DNA of 64,000 nucleotides from Patescibacteria group bacterium (GCA_036726225.1 DAIMCS010000002.1:3994-67993); one strand, 5' to 3'; counted from the stretch's first letter, positions 5,275-30,250 are shown. Made by a program: numbers and translations. The notes: generated from the sequence alone by a model not told the origin.

Positions 5275-5310
5275 CCCCTCCCTTGATGGGAGGGGCTAGG
5301 GGAGGGTGAT
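5275..5310. repeat. GC-rich palindromic element
   Basis: cccctcccttgatgggaggggctaggggagggtgat. Confidence 0.7.
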
Positions 5311-5329
5311 AAAAATAAGTTGTCTAAAG

Positions 5330-5364
5330 CCCCTCCCTAACCCTCCCCACAAGGGGGAGGGAAT
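5330..5364. repeat. GC-rich palindromic element
   Basis: cccctccctaaccctccccacaagggggagggaat. Same ends as the unit at 60299..60345. Confidence 0.7.
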
Positions 5365-5392
5365 TGAGTGCAAGCTTAATATACTCTAAATT

Positions 5393-9376: not shown

Positions 9377-10626
9377 AGAAACTTTTTTATTTACCATTGT
9401 GTCAAATGTCAAGACTTGACCCTGTGTTTCCTCCCTGATCTACTCATTCCGAATTGCTGAGTTAGATTCTGCAACTTTTCCATAGCTGTAGGCCTGACTA
9501 TCAGAACAAGGGGTCAAGTCTTGACATTTTACATTTTGCATAACCCATCAACCTTCTCAATTAAACGTTTAATTGCCTTATCTTTTTCTGCCTGCACGCA
9601 CAGCCTTTTAACCGTTTGCGATATAGAAGAATAATGCAAACCATTAAACTGTTCGGCTATTTGTTTTAGGCTAAGGTAAGTATAATGCTTTAAAGCGTAA
9701 ATGATAAGCTTCTTTTCGAGCTTGCGCTCTAGCTTGAGCCTGGTAATTACGGCTGTTATCCCTTCCAGAGTTTTAGTCCTTTGGACAAGTTTTAGGCTAG
9801 GAATCTCAGGATCTGTTTTATTACCTAAATAATCTTCTTGAATTTTAGAGACAAAGTCGCTATTTCCAAGAATTATACCTTTGTAAGCTTCTTTTTCAGG
9901 CCTAAAGTCTTGTTCTTCAGACTCAAACATAAATTCTTTAAATGCTTTAATGGCTTTTCTCTTGGATTTATGGAACTGCGAAAGCAAAAAATCAGTTTTT
10001 AAAAATACAGGCATTTCTGCTTTGCCAATATATGCGGGATAGCTGGAAAATTGATATTCTTCCAGCTGTTTTACAATCTTTGCCTTAAGCGGGTTTAAAT
10101 GAATGTATTTAGACAGTTGTAAAGAATAGCTGTCTTGGTCAACTAAAGTGGCTTTATACCTGCCTTGGAATAGAGGCCCTACTCTTTTGCGGCGCTTGTT
10201 GAATTTTAAAGTGTAGATGCCGTCCAACTGCCTCATAATTTTAGACAGCTGGCCGTTGGGAGTTTCAATATATAGGTGGTAATGGTTAGACATTAGGCAG
10301 TAACAATGAACCCAAAGGCCATACTTTTCGTGCAAATGTTTCAGCAGAAAAAAGAAATATTCTCTATCCTTAGAATCCCTAAATATTTCTCTTCGTTCAA
10401 GGCCACGATTGATTACGTGGTAAAACGCACCTGGATATTCAATTCTAAGAGGTCTGGCCATGCTAATTTACCGTTATTTGGCCAGTTTAATTTAATTAAG
10501 ATTGTTGTCAATGGATAACTTAAAAATACAAGCCTAATCTATTGTTTTAACTTAAATGTTTATTCTTACTGACAGTAAGAAACTTTTTTATTTACCATTG
10601 TGTCAAATGTCAAGACTTGACCCTGT
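9377..10626 (-). mobile_element. IS200/IS605-like or REPtron-type unit: HUH Y1 transposase flanked by ~49-bp direct repeats carrying REP-like hairpins
   Basis: Near-identical 49-bp segments (gaaactttttatttaccattgtgtcaaatgtcaagacttgaccctgt) at 9377..9425 and 10579..10626 bracket the transposase gene. An inverted copy of the hairpin lies at 9511..9530. Confidence 0.65.
9529..10461 (-). CDS. Y1 HUH transposase (IS200 TnpA / REP-associated tyrosine transposase) with a C-terminal DnaA-domain-IV-like HTH
   Basis: YHVINRG...HCYCLMSNHYHLYIETP (HuH motif) and a downstream catalytic-Tyr region. The C-terminal tail SLKQIAEQFNGLHYSSISQTVKRL resembles the DnaA C-terminal HTH. Confidence 0.8.
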   Translation of the reverse strand: MARPLRIEYPGAFYHVINRGLERREIFRDSKDREYFFFLLKHLHEKYGLWVHCYCLMSNHYHLYIETPNGQLSKIMRQLDGIYTLKFNKRRKRVGPLFQGRYKATLVDQDSYSLQLSKYIHLNPLKAKIVKQLEEYQFSSYPAYIGKAEMPVFLKTDFLLSQFHKSKRKAIKAFKEFMFESEEQDFRPEKEAYKGIILGNSDFVSKIQEDYLGNKTDPEIPSLKLVQRTKTLEGITAVITRLKLERKLEKKLIIYALKHYTYLSLKQIAEQFNGLHYSSISQTVKRLCVQAEKDKAIKRLIEKVDGLCKM

Positions 10627-10739: not shown

Positions 10740-11213
10740 TTATTTATTAGACTTATAGGAACTGGGTACCGAAGCTTCTTCGAAGTCAAATTTGTCTTTA
10801 TTCTTTTTTACTTCTTCTGCCAACAAATTTCCAATCATATTTGGGTCTACTTCTGATGGCACATCAATGGTTACAAAATTTTCAACTACACCGCTAGTTT
10901 CAGTACCGCAGCCAAGAGCATTAATTCTTTTTATTACTGAATTTGTATAATCACCTTTTTCATCCTCAAACACTTTAAACCTAAATGTACTATGGCCGCT
11001 AAACTTTATAGTTTTATCGTACATTAATAAACCATCAGGTGCAGGGGTCGCACTTACTATATCACCCCAACTAACACCAAAGACTCCGAAAGGAATATTT
11101 CTAATTTCATACTCATTTTCGGAGAGTTTTTCTGCAAACATTGTTTCTGTATGAGACCCTAAAAGCGAATCTTCTACATGAAAACCTATTTTTACCAAAT
11201 TATCATTGTTCAT
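10740..11213 (-). CDS. Putative immunity protein for the adjacent orphan Rhs-CT (HNH-like) cassette
   Basis: Small ORF immediately downstream of, and co-directional with, the toxin cassette 11245..12579. No known domain; assigned from position only. Confidence 0.4.
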   Translation of the reverse strand: MNNDNLVKIGFHVEDSLLGSHTETMFAEKLSENEYEIRNIPFGVFGVSWGDIVSATPAPDGLLMYDKTIKFSGHSTFRFKVFEDEKGDYTNSVIKRINALGCGTETSGVVENFVTIDVPSEVDPNMIGNLLAEEVKKNKDKFDFEEASVPSSYKSNK

Positions 11214-11244
11214 ATTTTAAATTCCTTTATTCTATTATAACCTT

Positions 11245-12579
11245 TTATGGCCAAGATGAAAACGGGTTGATATATTTATTTAGTGGGTTATTTGGGCTGT
11301 TTTTAAACTGCTCCTCAGACTGGGCACCCTTCTTTAAATTACAATCCCTACACTTCACGGAATCATTTTGAGGTGAGTTGTCTCCCCCCGCTTTACGCGA
11401 AGTCTTATGATCGTGATTCTTTTCATCCGGTGAAGGAGATTTCCCTTTTTCTGGCTTTCCGGGCTCTGTGACTTCTTTACCACAGTTGTCACATTTCAAC
11501 TTTCCATCATTTCTAGCTCTATTTTCTTCTTCTGTCTTTTCCTTGGTCTTATTTGAAAACTTACCTCCCGGCAAATATTTTTCTAAAGCAATTCCAGTAG
11601 AAGTCTGTGGCGTGGACATTAATGAAGCTGGTGTACTTTGATTTCCGATTGAATCAGGACCAGCTAAAGTCCATCTAATACCATAATACGCCCCAACTGT
11701 GCCGCCAACAACTATGGTTGCTCCCCCTAATACATATGCACCGACAATTACTTCACCACCGAGAGCAGCGCCTCCTCCACCAAATACCAATGTGCCTGCT
11801 GCAGCGTTTTCTCCAGTCGGATCAGTATTCACAATTGGGTTGTTTCTAGCATAACTATAACTATTCCACTGCTGAGGGTCTTGAAGATACTCATCTGGAG
11901 TTTCCCAGAACATAGGATCCTGACTTATAAACTTCGCATTTGTGCCATTGAAATAACGGCTATTCATGTAGGTCAAAGAACTGGTTGGGTCATACTCGTG
12001 TCCGCTAATACCTTTTCTTTGTTCGTTGAATCCAGTTTGTTCATCTATCCTAAAAGTACCGTAGGGATATGTATCGACAATTTGGACCACGGCGCCAGCA
12101 TCTGAGGTCGAGACATTTGCTCCACCGAGATGATCAACATGCACGTAACTTACTGTGGTAGAAGTACCCGTTCCAACTACAGTAGCAATAAGTGTGCCGT
12201 CTGGTAAGAATATATGTTTAGTTGGAACGCTTCCGGTTATATTATATTCCTTCGTTGGATAATAAGTAGTAACTGAGGATGTGGTAGCGACTGTCATCTT
12301 CACACGCTGACCCCAGGGATCATAGCTAAAAGTACTGGTGGCCGTCGTTGAAGTAGCCTGAGTCAGTCTATTGTTGTAATCCCAAGTGTAAGATACAGCT
12401 GGGGTACTGGTTCCTATTCTTTGGGTGAGTAGGTTTCCATTGTTATCATATGTATAAGCATAGGCGCTACCCGCTGTAGTGGTCGCTACAGCATGGGGAT
12501 TCAAATAAGCAGGGGTATTTGTAGCATAGGTATACGTAGTGGTAGTGGACAAGCCGACATCTACTCCAGATTTTAGCAA
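11245..12579 (-). CDS. Orphan Rhs C-terminal cassette (terminal YD repeats + Rhs core end + variable toxin tip with an HNH-like Cys/His motif)
   Basis: Shares TTTYTYATNTPAYLNPHAVATT...RYFNGTNAKFISQDP...NNPIVNTDPTG with the C-terminal part of the 2654-aa Rhs. The divergent tip contains CDNCGK...NHDH...CRDCN. Confidence 0.75.
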   Translation of the reverse strand: MLKSGVDVGLSTTTTYTYATNTPAYLNPHAVATTTAGSAYAYTYDNNGNLLTQRIGTSTPAVSYTWDYNNRLTQATSTTATSTFSYDPWGQRVKMTVATTSSVTTYYPTKEYNITGSVPTKHIFLPDGTLIATVVGTGTSTTVSYVHVDHLGGANVSTSDAGAVVQIVDTYPYGTFRIDEQTGFNEQRKGISGHEYDPTSSLTYMNSRYFNGTNAKFISQDPMFWETPDEYLQDPQQWNSYSYARNNPIVNTDPTGENAAAGTLVFGGGGAALGGEVIVGAYVLGGATIVVGGTVGAYYGIRWTLAGPDSIGNQSTPASLMSTPQTSTGIALEKYLPGGKFSNKTKEKTEEENRARNDGKLKCDNCGKEVTEPGKPEKGKSPSPDEKNHDHKTSRKAGGDNSPQNDSVKCRDCNLKKGAQSEEQFKNSPNNPLNKYINPFSSWP

Positions 12580-12628
12580 TGCTTAAAGGATAATATTAAT
12601 TTGTCAAAGGGCTTTAAGCTGGAATACT

Positions 12629-12853
12629 TTACTCAGTAAACGGTTCCAGCGTTTCTTCTTTTACAAAAGTGTCAGAACCATCGCTAAACTCAATAGTATA
12701 AAAAGCTGCACCTATTGGGGCTTTGAAATGTTTAGACTGATCCTCCGTTTCCACGGTAGTGATCCCGACTATCACCGCATAGGTTTTTAAAATTTTGCCG
12801 TTTTGATCTCTTGTTACTAAATTCACTTGATCATTGTAAGTAAATTTTGTCAT
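12629..12853 (-). CDS. Small immunity-like protein (paralog family of 3)
   Basis: 74 aa, directly downstream of orphan cassette 12868..14163. Paralogous to 14239..14463 and 14468..14704 (shared ...FYTIEF.DGSD.....LEPFTE). Confidence 0.5.
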   Translation of the reverse strand: MTKFTYNDQVNLVTRDQNGKILKTYAVIVGITTVETEDQSKHFKAPIGAAFYTIEFSDGSDTFVKEETLEPFTE

Positions 12854-12867
12854 ATAGTTATGCTTAA

Positions 12868-14163
12868 TTATTTAATCGGTAGCCAAGGAGTGCCGTCTGG
12901 ATTTGTAACTCCAGGCCTATGCGCATGAGGCTGTTGGGATCTGGGGTCTTGGTGCTTTGAAGAAGCAGGATGACCCTTATCTATTCGAGTTCCTGTTTGC
13001 TTGCCCTGAGAATCTTTTACTTGAATAGCCTCTCCATCGGGGGAACCTTGGATCTGCTCTCCCGCCCCCACTGGAATCGCATTACCTTTAGGGTCAACTA
13101 CAATAACAGGTTCTTTCACAGGCCCCACAAAAGGATTAGAATTGTCTGTATCGGTGGTTGAGGTGTCAGCAGTCAGTATAGAACTAGGTGTGGTTTGATT
13201 GCTAATATCTGGACTAGCCAATCCCCACCTAAGAGTTCCGGCAACGCCAATTGCCGCTGCACCACCAATTGCGACTGGCGGAGCATAAACTCCAATGAGA
13301 CCCCCGATGTAACTAAAAATAGGTGCTAATGAAGGAATATTAATTGTTGGAAGTGCTCTGGTAGCTTCACCGACAGCTGCTTGCCCTGTTGGATCTGTGT
13401 TTACTATTGGATTATTCAGTGCGTAACTGTAAGAATTTAGATTTTGAGGATTTGATAAATACTCCTTTAATTCCTGATCAGTCATCTCTTGAAGGTGACG
13501 ATTATCACCCATAGCTAAAAATGCTGGATCTTGGGACAAGAATCTAGTATTGGTTTGATTGTAATAGCGCTGGTTAAGATAGTTTAAATTTGAAGCAGGA
13601 TCAAACTCATAATTTGCAAATTTTCTTTGGCTGTTTAGTCCATTCTGTTCATCTATTCTTGCAGTCCCATACGGATAATAATCGGTTAGTTCAACTACAG
13701 CCGGATTTTCGCCGTCACTTGTTGCTAGATTCATACCACCTAGGTGATCTGTATGCACATACGACACTGTTGTAGTTGTACCAGTTCCAACAACAGTCGC
13801 GATTAAAGTACCGTCGGGTAAGAAGATATTTTTAGTAGGAGTTGAACCTGTTACGTTATACCCCTTGCTTGGATAATATGTTGTGGCGGATGAAGTGGTG
13901 GCTACTGTTTGTTTTATACGCTGTCCCCAAGGATCGTAACTGTATGTTGACGTTGCACTATTTCCCACTGCCTGGGTCATACGGTTATTATAATCCCAGG
14001 TATAGGCAGCTGTAGTTGTAGCACCGACTGCTGAGGAAGTAAGGTTGCCGTTATTATCATAAACGTATGTGGTGGCCGAGGCAGCAGTCGTAGTTGCCAC
14101 AGCGTGAGGATTAAGATAGGCCGCTGTTCCTGTAGCATAGGTATACGTAGTGGTAGCAACCAA
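12868..14163 (-). CDS. Orphan Rhs C-terminal cassette with toxin tip ending ...HAHRPGVTNPDGTPWLPIK
   Basis: Same conserved Rhs-core end (NNPIVNTDPTGQ). The tip is ~80% identical to that of 14729..16033. Confidence 0.75.
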   Translation of the reverse strand: MVATTTYTYATGTAAYLNPHAVATTTAASATTYVYDNNGNLTSSAVGATTTAAYTWDYNNRMTQAVGNSATSTYSYDPWGQRIKQTVATTSSATTYYPSKGYNVTGSTPTKNIFLPDGTLIATVVGTGTTTTVSYVHTDHLGGMNLATSDGENPAVVELTDYYPYGTARIDEQNGLNSQRKFANYEFDPASNLNYLNQRYYNQTNTRFLSQDPAFLAMGDNRHLQEMTDQELKEYLSNPQNLNSYSYALNNPIVNTDPTGQAAVGEATRALPTINIPSLAPIFSYIGGLIGVYAPPVAIGGAAAIGVAGTLRWGLASPDISNQTTPSSILTADTSTTDTDNSNPFVGPVKEPVIVVDPKGNAIPVGAGEQIQGSPDGEAIQVKDSQGKQTGTRIDKGHPASSKHQDPRSQQPHAHRPGVTNPDGTPWLPIK

Positions 14164-14238
14164 GCCAACACCTTCTCCGGGTTTTAGCGAGATTTTATAA
14201 GGCTATTCAGTTGTCAAAGGACTTTAAATTCGCATACC

Positions 14239-14463
14239 TCACTCAGTAAACGGTTCCAGCATATCTTCTGGAGCCAAAGTATCTGAGCCATCTGCAAACT
14301 CAATTGTATAAAATGTTGTACCTATAGACGCATTAAAATGCTTTGAGTCCTGTTCAGTTTTAACAGGCGATATACCGACTACTGCAGCATAAACTTTAGA
14401 AACGACATTTCCGCTTTCATCAAGTTTTTTTAAATAAACACTGTCTCCCCATGTAAATTGCAT
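14239..14463 (-). CDS. Small immunity-like protein (tandem paralog 1)
   Basis: Start placed at internal MQFTWGDSVYLKKLDE. ~75 aa, paralog of 14468..14704 and 12629..12853. Confidence 0.5.
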   Translation of the reverse strand: MQFTWGDSVYLKKLDESGNVVSKVYAAVVGISPVKTEQDSKHFNASIGTTFYTIEFADGSDTLAPEDMLEPFTE

Positions 14464-14467
14464 GTGA

Positions 14468-14704
14468 TTATTCGTTATTAGAAGAAAACGACTCCAGGAC
14501 ATCTTCCCGGACAAATTCCTGCATAGATCCATCACCAAATTCAATATTATACAAATTTGCACCAATAGGAAGTCCAAAGCGTTTTACATCCTCCTCTGTT
14601 TCAACCTGGGTCACCCATATCACTGCCGCAGGAACTTTAGACACTACTTTCCCATGTTCGTCAAGTTTTTTTAAATAAACACTGTCTCCCCATGTAAATT
14701 GCAT
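14468..14704 (-). CDS. Small immunity-like protein (tandem paralog 2)
   Basis: MQFTWGDSVYLKKLDEHGKVV... The 5' DNA (ccatgtaaattgcatgtgatt) is duplicated at 14441 and 14681. Confidence 0.5.
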   Translation of the reverse strand: MQFTWGDSVYLKKLDEHGKVVSKVPAAVIWVTQVETEEDVKRFGLPIGANLYNIEFGDGSMQEFVREDVLESFSSNNE

Positions 14705-14728
14705 GTGATTAAAACTTAAAATTATTAA

Positions 14729-16033
14729 TTATTTTATTGGTAACCAAGGAGTTCCGTCAGGATTTGTAACCCCAGGTCTATGGGCGTGAGGTTGTTGCCC
14801 CCTCGTATCAGGATGGGTACTAGCTGGATGTCCATTATCTATACGAGTTCCTGTGGTAGTCTTTCCATCAGATTGTTTGACATCAACCCACTTTCCATCC
14901 TTTGATGTTTTTATCTGCTCGCCTTTCCCAACGGGAATAGCGTTACCTTTAGGGTCAACTACGGTAACAGGTTCCTTTACCGGCCCTACAAAAGGATTGG
15001 AATTATCGGTATCGGCTTCTGGCTGGGCATTGGCATCACCTTCAGCAGTTAATATTGAACTAGGGGTTGTCTGGTTACTAATATCGGGGCTTGCCAATCC
15101 CCACCTCAGACTTCCCACTATAGCGACTGCTCCTACCCCACCAATAGCGACAGGTGGCGTATAGCTAATTATAACACCGCCGATATAATAAAGAATAGAT
15201 CCGAGAGCGGGAAGCGCAGGAGCAAGTCTCATAGCGCCTTCTGCGGATTGACCTGTAGGATCTGTGTTCACTATCGGATTATTGAGAGCGTAACTGTAAG
15301 AGTTCAGGTTTTGAGGGTTTGATAAGTATTCTTTTAATTTTTGGCCAGTCATTTCTTCGAGGTATTGATTGTCACCCATTGCCAAGAAAGCTGGATCCTG
15401 GCTTAAGAATCTAGCGTTGGTGCCATTGTAGTAGCGCTGGTTAAGATAATTTAAATTGGAGGCCGGGTCAAACTCGTAATTAGCAAACTTACGCTGGCTG
15501 GAAAATCCGCTCTGTTCGTCTATTCTTATATTTCCATAGGGCAGGTAATCTGAAAGTTGCTGGATTTCGCCTTCTTCGGAGGTCGCTACATTCATACCAC
15601 CGAGATGATCGGTATGGATATATGACACGGTTGTAGTTGTGCCGGTTCCAACTATCGTTGCTATCATAGTTCCGTCTGGTAGGAATATGTGCTTGGTCGG
15701 AACGCTGCCGGTAATATTGTATTCTTTGCTTGAATAGATAGTTGTAGTAGCACCTTGGGTCTGTTTTACTCTTTGACCCCAAGGATCGTAAGTGTAAGTT
15801 ACCGAAACTCCGGTAGATGAAGCTTGCGTTAAGCGATTATTATAATCCCAAGTATAGGCAGTTGATGTAGCGCCGCTAGTGATTATACCCGTAAGGTTTC
15901 CGTTGTTGTCATAAGTGCTGGTAGCAGTTCCTATCTTCTGTGGGGCATGGGGGTTTAAGTAAGCAGGAGTGTTTGTAGCATAGGTATACGTAGTGGTAGC
16001 ACCCAAGCCAACAGCTTCTCCCAACTTCAGCAA
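14729..16033 (-). CDS. Orphan Rhs C-terminal cassette (same tip family as 12868..14163)
   Basis: Begins inside YD repeats (TTTYTYATNTPAYLNPHA). Core end DPAFLAMGDNQYLEEM...NNPIVNTDPTGQ, then a GxxxG-rich TM-like segment and the ...HAHRPGVTNPDGTPWLPIK tip. Confidence 0.75.
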   Translation of the reverse strand: MLKLGEAVGLGATTTYTYATNTPAYLNPHAPQKIGTATSTYDNNGNLTGIITSGATSTAYTWDYNNRLTQASSTGVSVTYTYDPWGQRVKQTQGATTTIYSSKEYNITGSVPTKHIFLPDGTMIATIVGTGTTTTVSYIHTDHLGGMNVATSEEGEIQQLSDYLPYGNIRIDEQSGFSSQRKFANYEFDPASNLNYLNQRYYNGTNARFLSQDPAFLAMGDNQYLEEMTGQKLKEYLSNPQNLNSYSYALNNPIVNTDPTGQSAEGAMRLAPALPALGSILYYIGGVIISYTPPVAIGGVGAVAIVGSLRWGLASPDISNQTTPSSILTAEGDANAQPEADTDNSNPFVGPVKEPVTVVDPKGNAIPVGKGEQIKTSKDGKWVDVKQSDGKTTTGTRIDNGHPASTHPDTRGQQPHAHRPGVTNPDGTPWLPIK

Positions 16034-16069
16034 TGTTTGAAAGGTCTTACTAAGATGTTAAAGAACGAT

Positions 16070-16501
16070 TTAGAGGTCTTTAAAAATTTCAGAATCATAT
16101 TCACCTATTGATACCATTACCTGAACATCATCCAATGTGCCACAGTCAAAATATTGATGGAAATCATCACCATCTTTAGCAGAAGCAAAAATATCAAGCT
16201 CATTGATAAATTGTTCAAATTCTTTAGCACCCAAACCCCATTCAAATAAACTATCGTTAATTTTTTTCATACCCGTTACATCAGGAAGAACTTTTAACAG
16301 TACATCGACGTTGGATTTTATAAACATCGGTATTCCTCCAAAATTTACACTTGTTCCGGGTCTTCCTGCATAATCCTTTAATAGATCTCTAAATGAAGCG
16401 AAAGCTAAGGGACTTCCGGAAAACAATAATGTATCTGCGCTTTTAAAATTCTTAAAAAAACCAAAGTAAATTTTATTATCTTGTTTGTTCATATTTATCA
16501 T
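16070..16501 (-). CDS. Putative cognate immunity protein of the full-length Rhs toxin
   Basis: Its start codon overlaps the Rhs stop (ATGA at 16498..16501), implying translational coupling. No known domain. Confidence 0.5.
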   Translation of the reverse strand: MINMNKQDNKIYFGFFKNFKSADTLLFSGSPLAFASFRDLLKDYAGRPGTSVNFGGIPMFIKSNVDVLLKVLPDVTGMKKINDSLFEWGLGAKEFEQFINELDIFASAKDGDDFHQYFDCGTLDDVQVMVSIGEYDSEIFKDL

Positions 16502-19500
16502 TTTTTAGGTGTATTAGAGGACGGATTGTTTTTAAGAGGAGAATCATTACCAATTGGAACATTTCTCCACTCATTTCCCTGTTTTCCATCTGGACCCGGT
16601 GGTTGACCAGGTTTATGAGGATTATAGTCCCAATGAGGATTATGGCGCTCATCACCGGGGAAATATCTCCATTCGCCTCCTTTAGAATCCCAATAACTCT
16701 TCCCTCCTTCCTTTCCTTCAGAAGGACGACTAGCGGGACCCACTTTTAATTCTCCTGGATTTTCTACTGGTGGCGCGACACCGTCAGGTGCCAAACCTCT
16801 GGGAGTCTCAATCTTATCATTTGATTGGTCTGCAGGCATTATTGGCCCTATAAAAGGTTGGGGGGTCATCGCTTCTCTTTCAGCGTCTGTAATTGCTGGT
16901 GCATTAGCTGTACGGGGAAATACCAATACGCCTATTGCCGCGCCTATGCCTAGAGCAGTCGCGGATATTCCCGAAAGGATACCTGCCCCAATTTTAGCAA
17001 ATGGCATAGCAAGTGTGGCGGCGTTACCAGTTGGATCAGTATTGACGATTGGGTTATTTAAAGCATAGCTATAGGTATTTAAGTTTTGAGGATTAGATAA
17101 GTATTCCTTTAGTTGCTGGTTAGTCATTTCTCTTAACTGACGACTATCGCCCATAGCCAAAAACGCGGGATCTTGGGATATAAATTTTGCGTTCGCACCA
17201 TTGAAATAACGGCTGTTCATGTAGGTCAAAGAACTGGTTGGATCATACTCATGACCGCTGATTCCTTTTCTTTGTTCGTTGAACCCGTTTTGCTCATCTA
17301 ATCTGAAAGTACCATAAGGGTACGTATCAACAAGTTGGACTACTTCTCCGGAATCTGAGGTGGAGACGTTTGGTCCGCCAAGATGGTCGGTATGGATGTA
17401 ACTAACAGTTGTGGAAGTGCCGGTTCCAACTATGGTAGCTATCATGGTGCCGTCTGGTAAGAATATATGTTTGGTAGGAACACTTCCAGTTATATTGTAT
17501 TCTTTTGTCGGATAGTAAGTTGTAGCGCTGGATGTTGTCGCAACGGTCATTTTGACCCTCTGGCCCCAGGGGTCATAGGAATATGTACTGGTCGCATTAT
17601 TACCAAGAGCCTGCGTCAGCCTGTTGTTATAGTCCCATGTGTAAGAAGCTTGGGTGGATGTCCCTATCGCAGTAGAGGTTAAATTACCATTGTTATCATA
17701 GGTAAAGCTAGTGCTGGTTGCGACAGTAGTCGTGGCCACAGCGTGAGGATTCAAGTAAGCAGCCGTTCCTGTAGCATAGGTATACGTAGTGGTAGTGCCG
17801 TTTTCAACTCGGGTTAATATATTCCCAACACTGCTATAGGTATAACTATAGTTGTAAGGTGTGGTTGAAGCAGCAGTCGTGGAAGCATTGGTTAGCCTGT
17901 TTAAGTCGTCGTAAGAATAGGTAACCACCCTTTCTAAGGTCGTGCTGGCAGATTCCCTTATTTGGGTAATATTGCCGTTGTTATCGTAAGTGTAAGTTAA
18001 GTCCTGAATGGCAGGGCCCGGGGAGGGTGGCACCGGCCAATCACCCGTGTAAAGGTCAGAAATTTCTTCATCTGTCAGAGCGCGGTTAAATATGGAAAAG
18101 TCATCCACAATTCCGTCTGCTTTATTACCACCGTGAATAGCAGCCCCTACAACAGCTCCGGAAACTCCATAAGTTCCGCTCCCTCCACCGCTCACTGAAA
18201 TAGTGCCCAAATAGGTGCCGTTTATATAGGCTTTGGTAGATGAACCGTTATAGGATAAAGTTAGCATACTGAAGTAACTGGTGGGTACGGTTGTACTGTA
18301 AGATACCTGGTTGTCTGATACAGAATTCTTTTGGTAGATATAAAGCAGCTTTGGCGTACCACTGTCGTCGTAGTAGTCTATACGCATATTTACCTTGTCA
18401 GTGTCGGAAAACGCACCACCAAGTTCCCATCTCGCTCCGCCTGTTGGGGCGGCCGGCGGCTTGTACCAGAAATTCAAAGTAAAACCGGAAAGGAAGGAGT
18501 AGCCGTTTGGGTCGTTGGTATTGTTAAGCCATTTGCTGCTGTTAGAGCTACCCATATCCGCGCCATTGTTAAATTTAGCGGAATTGAAGGGTGTACTGCC
18601 ATTGTTCGTAAGGTTGCTGCCGACTGAGGCAGTGGTATTTTCAAGCCGGAAATATTCTTGAATGTTAGGGTCTGTGTAAAGTGAAGTTTCGTAAAGCTCA
18701 ACTGCCGCTGCGTTGGCTGTTTTGGGAGTAAATTGGGCAATAAGAAAACCAAAAGCTTTGCTAACGCCATTTGCAAAAGCGCGATAAATCTTGGACAAAA
18801 CCCCTTCCTCTTGAATTTCCTGAGGCAAAACTTCTTCCGGTTGTGGTGTGAGCTGCGATTCGGGCGTAGTTAAATTTGTAGGCTGGGGTGTAATTATTTC
18901 AGGGCTGGTTGTAGCCTCGACAACTTCAGGAACAGGCATTACGGGTTCTTCTAAAACACTTCCCTGTGTTGAGGTTGGAGTCGCTTCTTCCTCTTGTGAG
19001 GAAGTGGATGTTGCGGTGTTATTTTCAGCGGCCGGAGCCTGGTCTATTAAGTTTTCGGGCGTGTCGCTGGCAATATATTCTGGCGGTGGGTCTGCGACTA
19101 TTACTTCGGCTTTGCCTAGAGTCTCTTTTTGTTTTAATTCTTCTTCCTCTTTTATTTTTTCATCTTCATTATTAGGCAAGAGCTCTGGAGTTGCTTCTTC
19201 GTCAACAATGGCCGGTTCTTGAACTTGACCTAAGCTCTCTTGGGCATCCATTTGGGATTCTTCCTGTCCTGACTCTCCCTCACCAAACATCATAGATTCT
19301 TCTGAGGGCAGCCTTGTAACTTTTTGCTGCAGCCGGTACATATGGGCGACATCGTAAGTGTTTGTAGTAATAGCCCCATTGGCAAAAGTAATTACAGTGG
19401 GTTGTTCTAGAGGTGAGTAATCGTAACTGCTGACTACATCTGTATAAGAGCCGTCTGTGCTTTCTTTTCTTTGAACCTGGTCTAAAAGTCCCGCGCTGTT

Positions 19501-22500
19501 GTAAATATATTTAACCTGCGAGCTGTCAGGATTAGTTATGGTTAACCGGTTCCCGGCTCGGTCGTAAGTATAGGAAGTTGTGTAGCTGCTGCCCGTTATG
19601 ATTTTTACCTCCTGCGTAAGCTGACCTAAGGCGTTGTAGGTGTTGGTAAGGTTTACTGTCGTGGAGGAAGCCGTGCATAAACGCCCTTTGCCCTGGGTGC
19701 AGGAATCGTAGGTGTAGGTAACTTCTGTGCCACCGCTAGTGCCGGTGTGATCTTCCGTGAGTTGGCGATTAATGTCGTCGTAAGTGTAGTTAATGGTTTG
19801 AGACTTAGGGTCAATTTTTTGCGTAAGATTGCCCGCGTCGTCGTAGGTGTAAGTATAGGTGCCGTAAGTGGCGTCTGACGGCGAGTGCAAGTCTTGGGCA
19901 GTAAGTCTTCTGCCTAAACCGTCATAAGTAAAGCTTCGGGTGCTGCTGGCAGAATCCGTAATAGTTAAAAGATTACCCAAATAGTCGTAAGTGTAAGCGG
20001 TTGGGTGGATGGAAGCGCCGTTGCGCTCATCTACCTGTTTTAAATTACCATAGGCATCGCTATGTAAATCTTTAAGTTTGCCGTTGGGGTCTGTGACGGT
20101 AGTTTTCCAATCCTGAAAAGCTGTAGTGGTGGTGCCGTTGGCATTGGTGGTTGTTCCCACCCGGTATAAAGCGTCGTAAGTATAGTTTATAAATAAGGCA
20201 GATGTGGAAGTCGCGGTCGTGCTGGCTAAGCCGGACGAAAAATAAGGCAAAGATTCTTTTTGCAAAGAACCAATGTTATTGTAAACATAATCTTTAACAG
20301 AATAGTTGCTGCCTTCCGCCTCTTTGCGCTCCTGCTTTTTTCTGCCCAAGCCGTCCAGATATAAGTAGCTGTCTGTACTCGTGCTGGTGTCTAAGTAGAC
20401 TGACTTTTTTACGCTAAATGAACTGGTGGCGTTAGTGTAAGTAAAAGTTACTGCGGTCAGTAAAGTGGAAGTGGCGCTCGGGTCCGGCTGTTTTTGTTCA
20501 ATTACCCGGTCTAAGCCGTCGTACACATTTACAAAAATGTTTCCGTTTGGGTCTGTTGTGGTGGCAATTTTACCCGAAGAATAGTCGTAAGTCAGCTGAG
20601 TTGCCTGGCTAAGCGGGTTTAAAACCGTTGCGGGATAAAGATTAAAGCTGTCGTAGGTGTAAGTTGTAGTTTTGTCCCTTGGGTCTTTTTCCGAAGTAAC
20701 CAGACCGTAAGCGTTGTAAGTTTTTTCAATATCAACATAGGTAGAACTTGCCTTCCACATTTCTTGCTTGGTCAAATTTCCCTTATTTACAAGTCCTAAG
20801 TTTAAACTGTCATAATAATATTTATTCTCCTTAACTTTAGTGCTCCCGTTGTTAACTGTGGATTCAGTTGCCAATAAACTCATGGCAGAGGTCGTTGAAC
20901 TTGTGGCGTATGTATAAGTGGTGGTAAAATCGTCTGTTCCGGAATCGCTGAAGGTGCCGTCATCGCTGCCGGTTACTTCCCCATATTCAATTTTTTGGGT
21001 AATATTGCCTTTAGAATTGTTATAAGTGTAGCTTTCGGCTTTGTCCTTGTGGCTTGCGTCGCCGTCGTAAGTAAATTCCACTGTTTGGGCAAGCTTAACA
21101 AAGCCTGCCAGACCGTTAGCAGTGGTTGTTGCGCTATCCCATTTGTTAATTGTCTTTTTGAATAAGTTACTGTTTGCGTTGTATTGTTCAACCCTGTAAG
21201 GCTTGCCGATTTTAAAATAGTTGTCAGAAAATTCGCCGGTGGAGGTGGCGCTTGTGTTGCCCTGATGAAAAAAGGTTTTGGTCACATTTCCGGCCGCGTC
21301 GGTCTTGTCTACCTGGTTAAAGCCAGCAAAGCGCCTGTCAAAAGGACCGTTGAAATAATACTTGCCTCCACTGTAAGTAAAAGATTCTGCTGTACTGGTT
21401 GCTCCGTTTTCGCTTGTGGTAATTTGACTTACAGTCTGAACAATTAAGGGTAAGGTATTTAACTGAGTAGTGCTGGCATAATATTGGGAGGATGGTTTGT
21501 AGCTAATTTCGGTTTTACCGCCTGTTGGGTAAGTGATTCGGGTAAGTACATCTACCGGTTTTATATTGTTAACATTACTGCCTGATATATCATTAAAATA
21601 ATAAAAAGAATCGGCTAAGCCATTTCCATCTAAATCTCCGATTAATGAATGAGTGTAATGTGGTACGGAGTTATCGCTAAACTGGGCATAGCTTCCGTCG
21701 CCAATATCATCACTCCAACCATTACCTGTGTTTAAATAAGTTCTACGCGTCAGTTCGCCATCCCGTAAAGACTGGTTAATATCGGGTAAACCATCACCAT
21801 TGTACTCAAATACTCTTACGCCGTCATCGCCCCAGGTAGTTTGCAAATTTAGGGGTGGGGCGTAGCGAGAATAGCTATCCCAAGTGCTTGAGCTGTTGTT
21901 TATGTAAGCTTGTTTTTCGCTGCTACTGCCATCGTGGTAACCTCGTAAAAAGTCTGTTAATGTGTCCCCATTTAAATCAGCATTTATTCTTCCGCTTTTC
22001 GGGACTAACGGAAGAGTCCAGCTATTGCTTTGGGTCCAACCTTGACCGTTGTTTAAATAGACATGGTAATAAACAAAAGCCCCGTCTTCTAACATCCTAA
22101 AAATGTCCGGTAAACTGTCACCGTTAATATCACCAATTTCAGCGAACCTCTGATTACCCACGTTGGTAGTACCGTCTGAAAAGGACAAAAGAGGATTCCA
22201 GGTAGAACTGGCGGTCCAGCCTGCACCGGTATTTAAATAGGCTGCGCCTCCATAAGCATTGCTGGCACTAAGCATATCTTCCAATCCATCTCCGTTAACA
22301 TCCGCCATCCTGACACCCAAATCACACCACGGGTCTGTACAGCTACCTCCGTAAGCATAAAAATCGATAGGAGGCTGGTAAGTACTGGTGGCCGTAAAAA
22401 TACTTTGACCATTGTTTAACCACGCAACCCGTGTGGAACTCGCGCTTTGGTCTTTTGCCGCGTACATAATGTCAGTAAAACCATCCCCGTTAATGTCGCT

Positions 22501-24462
22501 GGCTATGGCGTAGTTTAAAGCGCTAGGCGGAGTGAAACTGGCATTACTAGACCAGCCCCCTTGTCGGGCTTGATAAGTAAATAGCGTTGAAGGCAAGCTC
22601 GTAGTACTGCCGTTATCGTCAATGCCGTTTTCGGTAACGCCGCTTAAAAGAGACCTGTAACCATTGTCACCGGTTGTGTAACTAAGAGAATATTTTTTAT
22701 GTAAACTTGTATCCTTCTTAATGTTTATTTCTTTTATACGTGAATTGGTTACTACTTGAAAACCAGTTTTTGTAGATGTAGAAGTGTCTGTCCTCGTTTC
22801 CCGGTTAAATTCAATATTATATAGAGGTGTGCTCGTGGTATTGCCGGCGTAATAAATGTTGGAAGGATAAATTTGAGAGCCGGATTTATAATAGCCGTAC
22901 TTTATTTGGTTACCATTGGTGTCCAGAACTCTGTCTAACAGCCATTTATAAATACGGCTTGGATTTTGCGGGTCTGCAAGTGTTGGTGATACACTTTGCC
23001 CCGACCCGCCGGACGGATATAGACTAAGGACTTCAGAACCACTTAAGTTTCTGTTAAAAGCAGCAACATCGTCTACAATGCCGCTGGCTTTGTTGCCTCC
23101 GTGGATTGCAGCGCCGACAACATAGCCTGAAGCTCCATAAGTCCCGCTTCCGCCCCCACTGGCCGACACATTTCCAACGTCAACCCCATTCATATAACCG
23201 CGCAGAGTAGAGCCGTTATACGTTACGGTCAGCATTGTAAAAATGCTGGTTGGCAGCGTGGTGGCATAAGTAACAGCAGTATCAGACACCCCTGTTTTTT
23301 GGTATATAAACTGTACTTTAGGAGTTCCGCTGTCATCAAAGTAGTCTATGCGAATATTTACTTTGTCAGTATCGGAAAATGCTCCGCCTAACTCCCATCT
23401 TGCGCTCCCGGTTGGTGAAGACGGGGGTTTGTACCACAGGTTTAAACTAAAGCCGCTTAAAAATGAATCCGAGTTTGGGTCCCGGCTATTCGTTAAATAA
23501 CGAGTTGAGTTACTAAAACCAAAATCAGAGCCATTGGCAAACTGTCCCGGGTTAAAAGGTGTTGAGCCGTTATTGGTCAGGTTATTACCAATTGTGGCAG
23601 ACGTGTTTTCGAGCCTAAAATATTGTTTTAAATTCGCGTCGTTGTAAAGCGAAGTTGAATACAATTCCACCGGCAAGCTTGCTTCAGGGTCACCAAAATA
23701 AAACCGGTTTCCTTTTTTGTCCGTAGCAGTCCAAACATTATTAGAAAAGACATAATTTAAAAATTCGCCGTTGTCTACTCTTGAAACATAAGTCGTGCTG
23801 GCGGTTGTGCTGGCAACAAGCTCGCCTGACAAAGACGAACTGAAATAACTCGTTGTGGAAATATTATTGTAGATGTTGTTAAGGCCGCTTTTATTTAATC
23901 TTTCAATATAAGGTATATTAATGCCCCAACCGGCGCCAAATTGGGAATCTATTTCTTTACTGTTTTGGCTGTTGTATTGAAGTTTTAAATCGGGCTGAAA
24001 GCCGTTGCGTCCGGGAGGCACAGCAATGGGGTATTCAGTCAGCAAAGAACCGCTGCTTTCATCGGCGTGGACAGGGGAAGCGGGTTTATAACCGGTTTCA
24101 ATTCTCGGATCCGGGTCCGAAGAGTCTAATAGCATTTCCGGTGGGGGTTCTTCGCTTTCGAGCTGTTGGTCAATCTGGCCGCTTTCTTCCGTAGGCTGTA
24201 GTTGTTCTTGGGGTAAAGGGTTAGGTTCGGGTGTGGGGGTAATTAATTCCGTTTCAGGCGTTGTTGTATTGTTCGATTCTAAGGAGGGGATAGTTGTAGT
24301 TGTTTGTGCAAAAGCGGAGGCTAAGGGAGTGAATAAAAAAGAAAAAGCTAACAAAATTGCTGTTAGCTTTTTAACTGCGTTAAATTTTAATACTTCAAAA
24401 AAGTCTTCTATAGAGGGCCCGGGAGCTTCGGGAAAGAGTTTTGTAATTTGATTCTCTTTCAT
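16498..24462 (-). CDS. Giant Rhs/YD-repeat polymorphic toxin (2654 aa): signal-like N-terminus, LamG-like domain, FG-GAP/VCBS-like repeats, YD repeats, P/E-rich linker, second LamG + YD-repeat/Rhs core, C-terminal toxin tip
   Basis: Numerous YD repeats (YTYDALYRV, YTYDYLGNL, FTYDGLGRRL, YTYDDAGNL). FG-GAP-like DINGDGFTDI/DVNGDGLEDM motifs. Rhs core end RYFNGANAKFISQDP...NLNTYSYALNNPIVNTDPTG followed by a ~210-aa unique tip. The LamG-like block (WELGGAFSDTDKVN...GIVDDVAAFNR) occurs twice. Confidence 0.85.
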   Translation of the reverse strand: MKENQITKLFPEAPGPSIEDFFEVLKFNAVKKLTAILLAFSFLFTPLASAFAQTTTTIPSLESNNTTTPETELITPTPEPNPLPQEQLQPTEESGQIDQQLESEEPPPEMLLDSSDPDPRIETGYKPASPVHADESSGSLLTEYPIAVPPGRNGFQPDLKLQYNSQNSKEIDSQFGAGWGINIPYIERLNKSGLNNIYNNISTTSYFSSSLSGELVASTTASTTYVSRVDNGEFLNYVFSNNVWTATDKKGNRFYFGDPEASLPVELYSTSLYNDANLKQYFRLENTSATIGNNLTNNGSTPFNPGQFANGSDFGFSNSTRYLTNSRDPNSDSFLSGFSLNLWYKPPSSPTGSARWELGGAFSDTDKVNIRIDYFDDSGTPKVQFIYQKTGVSDTAVTYATTLPTSIFTMLTVTYNGSTLRGYMNGVDVGNVSASGGGSGTYGASGYVVGAAIHGGNKASGIVDDVAAFNRNLSGSEVLSLYPSGGSGQSVSPTLADPQNPSRIYKWLLDRVLDTNGNQIKYGYYKSGSQIYPSNIYYAGNTTSTPLYNIEFNRETRTDTSTSTKTGFQVVTNSRIKEINIKKDTSLHKKYSLSYTTGDNGYRSLLSGVTENGIDDNGSTTSLPSTLFTYQARQGGWSSNASFTPPSALNYAIASDINGDGFTDIMYAAKDQSASSTRVAWLNNGQSIFTATSTYQPPIDFYAYGGSCTDPWCDLGVRMADVNGDGLEDMLSASNAYGGAAYLNTGAGWTASSTWNPLLSFSDGTTNVGNQRFAEIGDINGDSLPDIFRMLEDGAFVYYHVYLNNGQGWTQSNSWTLPLVPKSGRINADLNGDTLTDFLRGYHDGSSSEKQAYINNSSSTWDSYSRYAPPLNLQTTWGDDGVRVFEYNGDGLPDINQSLRDGELTRRTYLNTGNGWSDDIGDGSYAQFSDNSVPHYTHSLIGDLDGNGLADSFYYFNDISGSNVNNIKPVDVLTRITYPTGGKTEISYKPSSQYYASTTQLNTLPLIVQTVSQITTSENGATSTAESFTYSGGKYYFNGPFDRRFAGFNQVDKTDAAGNVTKTFFHQGNTSATSTGEFSDNYFKIGKPYRVEQYNANSNLFKKTINKWDSATTTANGLAGFVKLAQTVEFTYDGDASHKDKAESYTYNNSKGNITQKIEYGEVTGSDDGTFSDSGTDDFTTTYTYATSSTTSAMSLLATESTVNNGSTKVKENKYYYDSLNLGLVNKGNLTKQEMWKASSTYVDIEKTYNAYGLVTSEKDPRDKTTTYTYDSFNLYPATVLNPLSQATQLTYDYSSGKIATTTDPNGNIFVNVYDGLDRVIEQKQPDPSATSTLLTAVTFTYTNATSSFSVKKSVYLDTSTSTDSYLYLDGLGRKKQERKEAEGSNYSVKDYVYNNIGSLQKESLPYFSSGLASTTATSTSALFINYTYDALYRVGTTTNANGTTTTAFQDWKTTVTDPNGKLKDLHSDAYGNLKQVDERNGASIHPTAYTYDYLGNLLTITDSASSTRSFTYDGLGRRLTAQDLHSPSDATYGTYTYTYDDAGNLTQKIDPKSQTINYTYDDINRQLTEDHTGTSGGTEVTYTYDSCTQGKGRLCTASSTTVNLTNTYNALGQLTQEVKIITGSSYTTSYTYDRAGNRLTITNPDSSQVKYIYNSAGLLDQVQRKESTDGSYTDVVSSYDYSPLEQPTVITFANGAITTNTYDVAHMYRLQQKVTRLPSEESMMFGEGESGQEESQMDAQESLGQVQEPAIVDEEATPELLPNNEDEKIKEEEELKQKETLGKAEVIVADPPPEYIASDTPENLIDQAPAAENNTATSTSSQEEEATPTSTQGSVLEEPVMPVPEVVEATTSPEIITPQPTNLTTPESQLTPQPEEVLPQEIQEEGVLSKIYRAFANGVSKAFGFLIAQFTPKTANAAAVELYETSLYTDPNIQEYFRLENTTASVGSNLTNNGSTPFNSAKFNNGADMGSSNSSKWLNNTNDPNGYSFLSGFTLNFWYKPPAAPTGGARWELGGAFSDTDKVNMRIDYYDDSGTPKLLYIYQKNSVSDNQVSYSTTVPTSYFSMLTLSYNGSSTKAYINGTYLGTISVSGGGSGTYGVSGAVVGAAIHGGNKADGIVDDFSIFNRALTDEEISDLYTGDWPVPPSPGPAIQDLTYTYDNNGNITQIRESASTTLERVVTYSYDDLNRLTNASTTAASTTPYNYSYTYSSVGNILTRVENGTTTTYTYATGTAAYLNPHAVATTTVATSTSFTYDNNGNLTSTAIGTSTQASYTWDYNNRLTQALGNNATSTYSYDPWGQRVKMTVATTSSATTYYPTKEYNITGSVPTKHIFLPDGTMIATIVGTGTSTTVSYIHTDHLGGPNVSTSDSGEVVQLVDTYPYGTFRLDEQNGFNEQRKGISGHEYDPTSSLTYMNSRYFNGANAKFISQDPAFLAMGDSRQLREMTNQQLKEYLSNPQNLNTYSYALNNPIVNTDPTGNAATLAMPFAKIGAGILSGISATALGIGAAIGVLVFPRTANAPAITDAEREAMTPQPFIGPIMPADQSNDKIETPRGLAPDGVAPPVENPGELKVGPASRPSEGKEGGKSYWDSKGGEWRYFPGDERHNPHWDYNPHKPGQPPGPDGKQGNEWRNVPIGNDSPLKNNPSSNTPKK

Positions 24463-24602: not shown

Positions 24603-26030
24603 TTAAGTTTGGGTTTTGGTAAGGTCCACCAAAGTAGTTTCGGTAAGGCCGTTATGTATTGGCACGGTAAAAATAAAACTTGAGCCTTTGTCTAGCCCTT
24701 GGCTTTCCGCCCAAAGCTTTCCTTTATGCTGCTCTACAATAACTTTGGCAACATAAAGGCCAAGCCCAAGGCCTGCACTTTGCTTGGAAGACTCTTTTCC
24801 ACGTTTGAATTTTTCAAAAATTTCATCTTTTTCGTCTTCCGACATCCCTTTGCCCGTATCGGTAACACTAAAACGTATTTCTTCGTCAGTAGAAGAAAGG
24901 TCAACTGTAATACTTCCCTTTTTGGTGTATTTAATGGAGTTGTCTATAAAGTTGTTCATAACCTGCCTAATTTTTTCTTTGTCTGCCATTATTTGCGGTA
25001 CAGATTTTGGCATGTTGAATGCCAGCTTTAATCCTTTTTCCTTCGCAATGGGTTGAAGCTGCTCAAAAGTTATTTTGGCTAGGTCTAAAAGGTTGACCTC
25101 TTGGAATAAAAATTCCATTTTGCCGCGTTCAATACGGGAGACATTTAACATATCGTCAATAAGCGCAATAAGTGAGTTGTTGGTGCGTGCAGTCTTTTCC
25201 AGGGTCTCTTTTAGGCCGTCGTCAACTTTGCCGTAGTCTCCGGCTAAAATTGAGCTTAAAAACCACTTTATAGTTGCCGGCGGCGTGCGCAGCTGATGGC
25301 TGGCAATGGTAATAAACTCCGACCTGGCTTTGTCTAATGCTTCGAGCTGTTCGTTGGCTTTTTGTAATTCTTCGTAGAGTATTGCTTTGTCTAATGCAAC
25401 AGCAATTACGTCGACACAGTTTTTCACAGATTCTTTTTCAAAATCACTTAAGCCACTGTATTCTCGGTTAATTGCTAAAACTAAAAGCCCAGTTGTCCGA
25501 TTCTGGCTCAATAGTGGGTATAAGAGCACATTTTTTATATGAGATTCTTCCGCAATAGTTTTTAAATTGGAGTCGTTTATAATTCCGCCCCACACGTCAT
25601 TTAATCTGGAATTTAAAGATGGAATTTTATTTCGTATTACATTGGTTAAAACAGGTTTGGCCGATACAGAGTTAATAATAAAATCTCTAAACATAAAGCC
25701 CGTATGTTTTAAAGCTGTAAGAAGGCGTTCAGATTTAGAAAAAATAAAAGGGTAGAGGGTGTCATCTGCTTCGTGAAAGGAAAAAACCCCTACCGTTTCC
25801 ATATTTAAATCGACCCTGACCTCTTCCGACATTTTTTCGGAAAGCGAGGCTGGGTCTAAAGTTAAAAGGCTAACTTGATAAAGCTTTCGCAAAAGCGAAA
25901 GCGTTTTATTTACGACTGCTAGCTCAATGTTGCGCCTGTAGATTTCTTCGTTTATTTCTTGAAGATGTTGATCCATGGGAGCTTCGGTGGTTACTGACTT
26001 GTCTTTTTTTACTTCCTTACGTTTCGGCAT
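24603..26030 (-). CDS. Cytoplasmic sensor histidine kinase (GAF-like sensor + HisKA + HATPase_c)
   Basis: H-box ASHQLRTPPATIKW. ATPase G-boxes DTGKGMSEDE and GLGLGLYVAKVIVEQHKGKL. No TM segments and no adjacent response regulator. Confidence 0.8.
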   Translation of the reverse strand: MPKRKEVKKDKSVTTEAPMDQHLQEINEEIYRRNIELAVVNKTLSLLRKLYQVSLLTLDPASLSEKMSEEVRVDLNMETVGVFSFHEADDTLYPFIFSKSERLLTALKHTGFMFRDFIINSVSAKPVLTNVIRNKIPSLNSRLNDVWGGIINDSNLKTIAEESHIKNVLLYPLLSQNRTTGLLVLAINREYSGLSDFEKESVKNCVDVIAVALDKAILYEELQKANEQLEALDKARSEFITIASHQLRTPPATIKWFLSSILAGDYGKVDDGLKETLEKTARTNNSLIALIDDMLNVSRIERGKMEFLFQEVNLLDLAKITFEQLQPIAKEKGLKLAFNMPKSVPQIMADKEKIRQVMNNFIDNSIKYTKKGSITVDLSSTDEEIRFSVTDTGKGMSEDEKDEIFEKFKRGKESSKQSAGLGLGLYVAKVIVEQHKGKLWAESQGLDKGSSFIFTVPIHNGLTETTLVDLTKTQT

Positions 26031-30247: not shown

Positions 30248-30250
30248 ATA

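Follow-up and report, generated by a model that had tools for sequence, protein, structure and literature searches.

The 64,000-nucleotide stretch of Patescibacteria group bacterium DNA analysed here as a whole (GCA_036726225.1, DAIMCS010000002.1:3994-67993; hereafter the window) very probably carries a chromosomal Rhs polymorphic-toxin locus, in which a delivered toxin tip and its immunity gene are accompanied by a silent reserve of further toxins, in a Doudnabacteria-like member of the Patescibacteria. On the minus strand, one full-length rhs gene precedes three orphan cassettes, each of which repeats the end of the Rhs core and carries a toxin tip, and all four tips are followed by small genes. 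The evidence comes from the domain content of the main protein, the conserved pairing of each toxin family with a small downstream gene, the purifying selection on the cassettes, the mosaic history of the core ends and one exact 26-nt block present in all four copies (for coordinates see Table 1).

Domain organization of the main Rhs protein

In the initial annotation of this DNA, made by inspection of the sequence, a giant Rhs open reading frame (ORF) of 2654 aa, ending its core with NNPIVNTDPTG, was placed at 16498..24462 on the minus strand; both ends agree exactly with our ORF map, and the core is recognized by TIGR03696. Using the Pfam collection, we detected RHS_repeat (PF05593) in 7 stretches (E 1.2e-27), Laminin_G_3 (8e-26), SpvB (2e-16) and FG-GAP_3 (2e-11), while the YD shell was also matched by TIGR01643 in 5 stretches and by YD_repeat_2x and TEN_YD-shell. 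The two LamG inserts are 66% identical to each other. The Rhs-associated core (TIGR03696) scored 43-52 bits in the main gene and in all three orphans, against a cut-off of 32.5, and each copy ends with the same NNPIVNTDPTG. The N-terminus, consisting of KK, the hydrophobic run LTAILLAFSFLFTPLASAFA and a following Q, reads as a putative Sec signal, and strongly hydrophobic stretches occur at only two places in the whole protein, this signal and the start of the tip. The tip, estimated at first as ~210 aa, measures 175 aa after DPTG, and the predicted overlap of the rhs stop with the start of the 143-aa ORF (ATGA at 16498..16501) is present, the sequence there reading AAAAAATGATAAATATG.

The presence of these defining domains supports the assignment of the locus to the Rhs polymorphic toxins, and on its domain order the main protein belongs to the signal-peptide, SpvB, integrin-like propeller and RHS class, that is, to a known class rather than a novel system. 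PAAR, DUF4150 and VgrG, by which a type VI secretion system (T6SS) effector would be recognized, found no match in the main Rhs protein or in the 64-kb window.

Orphan cassettes downstream of the main gene

All three orphans start alike with a 26-nt block inside the YD shell, 432 codons before the stop of the main gene, and they carry neither a signal peptide nor an ATG start, with in-frame stops just upstream. The 5' truncation, the shared core end, the position downstream on the same strand and the absence of an export signal together give these copies the form of a silent array. The reading of the orphans in the initial annotation is thereby supported: the ORFs of 431-444 aa lie exactly where they had been placed, each using again the last ~255 aa of the core, with the Rhs-associated core complete. 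Two details needed correction. Every orphan ends in a tip, as claimed, but the tips of orphans 1 and 2 are paralogs and hence not unique, and although the sizes (74-157 aa) and positions of the small ORFs are exact, orphan 1 is followed by two of them instead of one.

Divergence between the core ends is saturated at synonymous sites (pS 0.66-0.86), with nonsynonymous divergence (pN) of 0.13-0.23, and the tips of orphans 1 and 2 differ from each other with pS 0.63. Where it could be computed, the ratio of nonsynonymous to synonymous change (dN/dS) was 0.06-0.15, and 0.24 for the immunity paralogs. The reading frames are unbroken in all three orphans. By these measures the orphans are not decaying and stand under strong purifying selection, and the degraded pseudogenes that would have spoken against the initial annotation were not encountered.

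Toxin tips and their putative immunity genes

The four tips fall into three families, one formed by the main tip, one by orphans 1 and 2 and one by the HNH tip of orphan 3, and share a common layout, in which a Gly/Ala-rich hydrophobic stretch of 40-45 aa is joined by a short linker to a toxin domain of 85-95 aa. The hydrophobic stretches show GxxxG-like spacing, and comparable ones follow DPxG in homologs of other phyla; they may serve as a membrane-entry element of such Rhs tips. After searches of Pfam, NCBIfam and PDB sequences with the tips and the small ORFs, only HNH and DUF4265 were matched. The profile search of the tips proposed in the initial annotation was thus productive for orphan 3, which matched PF01844 just above threshold (E 1.3e-4, 22.4 bits against a cut-off of 21.4), and gave no Pfam match for the main and orphan-1/2 tips. 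In the orphan 3 tip the pattern CxxC...H-DH...CxxCN is readable, and this tip shares 28% identity with the HNH tip that an Rhs protein bears in a Parcubacteria metagenome-assembled genome (MAG; L065).

The main-tip domain has 64 homologs in the word index, and a survey of 1.84 billion proteins contained 137 representatives. In the numbering of the family alignment, E39, W40, R41, H52 and D54 are invariant. The homologs lie nearly always at the extreme C-terminus, in proteins of up to 3361 aa, on trunks that include RHS cores and mycobacterial proteins, and one actinobacterial homolog adjoins EspK_C and EccC-type (FtsK/SpoIIIE) genes, which is an ESX context. Members were also noted in the Mycobacterium tuberculosis complex (L098:4001-5027, strain label UT0087, KK340113.1; proteins P0087 and P0090), where one 300-aa cluster comprises 730 member sequences. 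There the tip homolog is followed by a 116-aa gene that retains the HQY...S..EY motif of the 143-aa immunity family, which it matches weakly (hhalign E 2e-4, probability 44%), and the two genes may form an unstudied ESX-linked toxin/immunity pair.

The tips of orphans 1 and 2 are 73% identical overall and 80% identical in the toxin domain of ~85 aa. Its invariant residues include H69, D71, H78 and H80 in alignment numbering. Elsewhere this domain is carried by RHS cores and by a PT-HINT protein, and it also occurs behind signal peptides. MAFFT aligned some motifs of the main tip with those of the orphan-1/2 tip, and a distant homology of the two was considered; it was rejected at an hhalign probability of 0.3%, and the profile comparison shows the two families to be unrelated. 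Three unrelated tip families thus sit on one conserved core, and tip domains occur also on PT-HINT, signal-peptide and ESX-linked proteins. The AlphaFold model of the orphan-1/2 family is confident (pLDDT 91.9), and a Foldseek search with it returned no significant match to solved structures; that of the main-tip family is of moderate quality (pLDDT 78.8). Structural comparison gave leads, not assignments, to the polymorphic toxin DNase PT7(Bc)/PIM7 (PDB 8owu) and to the 16S rRNase CdiA-CT(ECL) (PDB 4ntq); PT7 is reported to be a metal-dependent DNase of novel fold (bioRxiv 10.1101/2021.10.19.465003).

The small downstream ORFs of all three families are best read as immunity genes: in genomes unrelated to one another, ORFs homologous to them sit right behind homologs of the corresponding toxin, and this conserved pairing gives comparative support to what the initial annotation had proposed from position. 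Homologs of the orphan-1/2 toxin in L007/L008, L009 and L010 are directly followed by ORFs of 73-88 aa with the motif YTIEFGDGS, so that the pairing with homologs of the 74-78-aa ORFs is seen at four loci in three distinct genomic contexts. Main-tip homologs are followed by a 139-aa ORF in L011 (58% identity to the 143-aa ORF) and by a 132-aa ORF in L012 (28%), and in the Parcubacteria MAG the Rhs with HNH tip is followed by a DUF4265 protein with 33% identity to the copy in the window.

In its 3' end and flank, the second small gene after orphan 1 resembles more closely the one that follows orphan 2 (repeat family D7, 72% DNA identity), and this resemblance suggests that the units were duplicated in staggered register. 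A 140-aa variant of the immunity protein (P0099), considered as possibly coming from a sister strain, turned out to be identical DNA with an alternative start call. Beyond the transposase that bounds the array, a 137-aa ORF without family match (8881..9294, minus) lies on the strand of the array and could be a stray immunity gene.

Junction block and probable exchange between core copies

The junction sequence said in the initial annotation to be shared by all four cassettes is real: the 21-mer CATAGGTATACGTAGTGGTAG occurs in exactly four copies, at 12525, 14136, 15979 and 17775, with zero expected by chance, and extends to the 26-nt block CTACCACTACGTATACCTATGCTACA on the minus strand (Table 1). 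Every unit has this block at its 5' edge, and no other sequence of at least 12 nt is exactly alike in all four copies. Of 136 conserved degenerate codon positions only 21 are fully identical, and the eight codons of the block supply 8 of these. The homology around it is more modest than first described. The shared region, put at ~1 kb, measures ~735-775 nt (about 750), and the ~88% identity between the main gene and orphan 3 holds in short windows (85-90%) but falls to 75% over the core. Core DNA identity is 63-75% overall, with 65-67% between the main gene and orphans 1 and 2, and the longest exact blocks between copies are 26-31 nt. The identity profile is mosaic: over core alignment columns 270-600 the main gene comes closest to orphan 3, yet a 13-aa insert links it with orphans 1 and 2 alone. 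This pattern points to past exchange between the copies.

Ten public contigs carrying the locus (L001-L006 and L094-L097, from JGI, ENA and Logan assemblies) were compared, and all 10 fetched are 100% identical to the window; an assembly artefact is thereby excluded as the source of the locus. Breaks in the contigs (17794, 15596 and 14682), weighed as possible signs of population heterogeneity, were attributed to assembly-graph branching at repeats, a reading that has its basis in a 31-nt exact block shared by the main gene and orphan 2 at 17794 for that break only. Metagenome scans with a main-specific 39-mer and the 26-mer gave zero matches; since even the parental sequence was unmatched, the scanned collection evidently lacks this organism and the scans are uninformative.

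In E. coli, RecA-dependent exchange needs an exact match of roughly 23-27 bp, and the 26-nt block is just of that size; the figure is said to go back to Shen and Huang in 1986. By analogy with other organisms (PMC3967940, PMC3482391), toxin switching may take place at this locus. The block itself could be a maintained switch site, the footprint of a Campbell-type cassette insertion or a hotspot of unequal crossing-over. That it is a maintained and dedicated crossover or insertion site, at which units are inserted, excised or brought into frame, we hold to be very doubtful; if true, it would mean programmed toxin switching in a tiny-genome epibiont, against its host or rivals, despite saturated homology. 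The array offers a clean natural test of the minimum homology for toxin switching.

The same data bear on whether the toxin parts of the orphans have a use at all. The orphans could be displaced relics of once-active tips, each moved downstream by a new cassette acquired through horizontal transfer; only the immunity genes would still matter, by guarding against neighbours armed with those toxins, while the toxin parts would never be reused. Displacement is the standard model of cassette arrays, as outlined in PMC3482391, and it would fit with the saturated synonymous sites, which make exchange between copies difficult now, with the lack of variation among the public copies and with the extra immunity gene after orphan 1, which has no toxin of its own. 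We nevertheless consider this unlikely, because three toxin frames of ~430 codons each have stayed intact with dN/dS at or below 0.15, and because inert toxin parts would not readily account for a 26-nt block that is identical in four copies on a saturated background.

A second view of the units starts from the leaders between them. The leader of ~65 nt is conserved between units and is not present in the main gene, and a remnant of leader or block, looked for after the last immunity gene, was not found. A TTGACA-like element and a GGAG are present in all three leaders, and a TTG in frame lies 11 nt downstream. Such units might work mainly as internal toxin-antitoxin modules, transcribed from their own leaders and translated from the TTG after GGAG, for growth regulation or stabilisation of the locus. 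Main and orphan Rhs tips of Salmonella do play such a role, being expressed from internal promoters (PMC7043789), and the intact orphan ORFs under purifying selection would agree with it. This too appears quite unlikely as the main function: in a promoter and terminator scan of the locus the counts did not exceed the shuffled expectation and only a single leader scored, the spacing from GGAG to TTG is long with no ATG start, common descent of the units explains the conservation of the leaders equally well, and the retention of ~255 aa of shell and autoprotease with each tip is left unexplained. A module function of this kind is compatible with a toxin reserve and does not exclude it.

Proposed mode of action

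We propose that the orphan units serve as a toxin reserve for the main gene. On the model of its family, the 2654-aa protein would be exported by the Sec pathway, and its YD repeats would enclose the C-terminal tip in a closed shell. The core, an aspartyl autoprotease by family membership, is expected to cut after ...DPTG, and such a cut would leave the 175-aa tip free inside the shell. The LamG inserts would bind carbohydrate on cell surfaces, and contact would release the tip into the neighbouring cell, the hydrophobic stretch of the tip probably helping its passage through the membrane. The toxin domain of each tip is presumed to be enzymatic, and the gene directly downstream to encode a cytoplasmic immunity protein protecting the producer and its kin. 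The array consists of three head-to-tail units, each composed of the 26-nt block, core end, tip, one or two putative immunity genes and the ~65-nt leader. These units would protect the cell from three additional toxins, an HNH nuclease and two members of a single family, and would at the same time be kept as the silent reserve. Were the main gene and a unit to cross over, most plausibly at the 26-nt block, that unit would be fused in frame to the 6.7-kb delivery part and the deployed toxin would change.

That the protein is instead the BC part of a Tc-type (ABC) toxin directed against eukaryotic cells, not bacterial competitors, is extremely improbable: SpvB, propeller and RHS do make up the TcB/TcC architecture in the outline of PMC3482391, and weak profile matches to YenC2 and the salivary gland surface protein SGS1 were obtained, but no TcA-type family is represented among the large ORFs of the 64-kb window, a conserved immunity gene beside every tip argues for toxins acting on bacterial cells, an HNH nuclease forms one of the tips, bacterial toxins of the type VII secretion system and PT-HINT types contain the tip families, and the organism is a Patescibacterium.

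Several points weigh against the proposed toxin reserve. Export route, autocleavage, toxicity, neutralisation and switching are inferred, and the toxin might be aimed at kin, at competitors or at the bacterium that hosts this probable epibiont. The purifying selection on the orphans could predate their arrival in the array, dating from the time when they were active tips elsewhere. Promoter-like sites are not above chance, which bears on how the downstream immunity genes would be expressed. As a substrate for RecA-type exchange the array is poor, with 63-75% identity and exact blocks of at most 31 nt compared with 95% over 522 bp in Salmonella, and among the 10 public copies, all identical to the window, neither switching nor a variant arrangement was seen.

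If the toxin reserve is what it appears to be, the locus documents a complete Rhs weapon in Patescibacteria, organisms attached to other bacteria whose means of attack and competition are poorly known. It also supplies two well-delimited toxin/immunity pairs without Pfam model, one of which reaches the M. tuberculosis complex and ESX genes. The points of interest are thus the host lineage, the internal LamG inserts, the toxin/immunity families without Pfam model and the perfectly conserved block on a saturated background.

Host and genomic neighbourhood

The host was judged to be Doudnabacteria-like by its PNPase (51068..53305), which is 77-82% identical to proteins of Candidatus Doudnabacteria and the Patescibacteria group; for sister Doudnabacteria genomes a PNPase identity of about 84% is given. 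Among the GTDB species representatives, which do not include the host genome, the nearest Rhs core ends (40-56% identity) belong to Saccharibacteria, Uhrbacteria, Parcubacteria, Paceibacterota and Kaiserbacteria. The order of Rhs with HNH tip, DUF4265 gene and Y1 transposase found at the end of the array recurs in the Parcubacteria MAG (L065:4963-6329), the transposases being 31% identical. A genomic island was considered for the tRNA-Arg genes and integrase at 4447-6415 and rejected, housekeeping genes for RimK and ribosomal protein S15 separating the island from the array.

On the other side of rhs lie a histidine kinase gene (24603..26030), beside which no response regulator was identified, and two adjacent genes for TrmB-family regulators (29465..31066, minus). 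Further upstream, a 1308-aa M23 peptidase (32194..36120, plus) contains Peptidase_M23, an SprB repeat and two LamG domains, in a region with a GC content of 0.49-0.52, above that of its surroundings. The first of its LamG domains is 57% identical to the Rhs LamG inserts, the two genes being 8 kb apart, and the presence of this LamG on both a toxin and a peptidoglycan hydrolase may mean that the two recognise cell surfaces in a common manner.

Table 1. Features of the rhs locus and its boundary, in plus-strand coordinates of the window.
Feature	Position	Strand	Remarks
Main rhs gene	16498..24462	-	2654 aa; SpvB, LamG-1, FG-GAP, YD shell, acidic linker, LamG-2, YD shell, core, tip
Putative N-terminal export signal	24304..24462	-	aa 1-53; hydrophobic core aa 32-50, ...ASAFA/Q; read directly from the protein sequence
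LamG insert 1	23017..23553	-	aa 304-482; Pfam
FG-GAP (integrin-like propeller) repeats	22099..22503	-	aa 654-788; Pfam
Acidic Pro/Glu/Thr-rich low-complexity linker	18583..19095 (approximate)	-	~aa 1790-1960 (~170 aa); splits YD shell; direct reading
LamG insert 2	18049..18585	-	aa 1960-2138; Pfam; inside YD shell, after acidic linker
26-nt exact junction block, main gene copy	17770..17795	-	Codons TTYTYAT
Rhs-associated core, main gene	17026..17322	-	aa 2381-2479, ends ...NNPIVNTDPTG; TIGR03696 43 bits, cut-off 32.5
Gly/Ala-rich hydrophobic segment, main tip start	16891..17022	-	Kyte-Doolittle 19-aa window maximum 1.94
Main toxin domain, uncharacterised family	16501..16800	-	Motif GPASRPSE..GGxS.WD..GGEWRYFPGD..HNPHWDYNPH
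Putative immunity gene of main tip, 143 aa	16070..16501	-	ATGA overlap with rhs stop; homologs follow main-tip homologs
Inter-cassette leader 1	16000..16063	-	Repeat family D5; kept in three junctions, not in main gene
Orphan cassette 1	14729..16033	-	434 aa; junction block 15974-15999, core end, hydrophobic segment, toxin domain 14732-15019
Putative immunity gene 1a, 78 aa	14468..14704	-	Motif YTIEFGDGS
Putative immunity gene 1b, 74 aa	14239..14463	-	ATG at 14463, within 112-aa TTG ORF; 62% identity to 1a, 58% to immunity gene 2
Inter-cassette leader 2	14157..14220	-	Repeat family D5
Orphan cassette 2	12868..14163	-	431 aa; junction block 14131-14156; tip paralogous to orphan 1 tip
Putative immunity gene 2, 74 aa	12629..12853	-	Homology to orphan-1/2 immunity family
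Inter-cassette leader 3	12546..12609	-	Repeat family D5
Orphan cassette 3	11245..12579	-	444 aa; junction block 12520-12545; HNH nuclease tip, HNH motif ~11323-11493
Hydrophobic segments of orphan tips	15100..15225, 13220..13345, 11680..11800 (approximate)	-	Directly after DPTG
Putative immunity gene to HNH tip, DUF4265, 157 aa	10740..11213	-	PF14085, E 4e-21
IS200-like Y1 transposase gene bounding array	9529..10461	-	PF01797; DnaA-C-like helix-turn-helix tail

Comparison with known systems

In the literature searched on Rhs in Patescibacteria, Rhs-family genes are mentioned only in passing, as part of the putative phage-derived genes integrated in genomes of the candidate phyla radiation (CPR), and no description of such a locus was found, while the literature on DUF4265 yielded unrelated work only, likewise without description of such loci. 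The closest described class is that of polymorphic toxins with signal peptide, SpvB, propeller and RHS, for which PMC3482391 outlines LamG as an accessory adhesion domain and arrays of toxin-immunity cassettes, with a median of ~3 cassettes per active toxin (Zhang et al. 2012). The present locus shares with this class, there named the 'TcdB/TcaC' trafficking class, the N-terminal architecture, the RHS shell, the variable C-terminal toxin, the immunity gene and the downstream cassettes, and its ratio of one active toxin to three cassettes equals the median reported (PMC3482391). It differs in its host phylum, Patescibacteria being absent from the phylum list shown for the class, and in the placement of LamG, which is N-terminal in the class as outlined there but internal here, one of the inserts lying in the YD shell after the ~170-aa linker (PMC3482391). 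No Pfam model exists for two of the locus's three tip families, nor for two of its three immunity families.

In Salmonella Typhimurium, recombination at STM0291/STM0292 can fuse the rhs orphan to the main gene, across a homology of 95% over 522 bp, compared with 63-75% over ~750 nt plus one 26-nt exact block here (PMC3967940). The arrangement of rhs-main with rhs-CT-orphan in Salmonella is like the present one in that a full-length rhs is followed by a 5'-truncated orphan with shared core end, its own immunity genes and no export signal, but it includes one orphan, whereas here three orphans with identical 5' boundaries are joined by a shared leader. Salmonella Rhs is delivered by the T6SS, unlike the protein described here, which has a Sec signal and no T6SS genes in the window.

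Another parallel is WapA of Bacillus subtilis, which Koskiniemi et al. in 2013 reportedly described as a Sec-exported, wall-associated YD-repeat toxin of contact-dependent inhibition. WapA belongs to a bacterium without outer-membrane injection machine and, as at the present locus, combines a polymorphic C-terminal toxin with a downstream immunity gene; unlike the main Rhs protein, it is not known to have SpvB, FG-GAP propeller modules or LamG inserts.

Rhs arrays that have orphans of their own were also seen in L012, L011, L009 and L020, indicating that the layout is common, in other CPR MAGs as well. In Candidatus Parcubacteria (L020:420-11305, JAPLYL010000002.1), an Rhs protein of at least 2205 aa is followed by two partial copies of 587 and 579 aa that start with ATG, show 83-91% homology to their main gene and have a 5' boundary unlike that in the window, and from this array it follows that such arrays recur in Patescibacteria.

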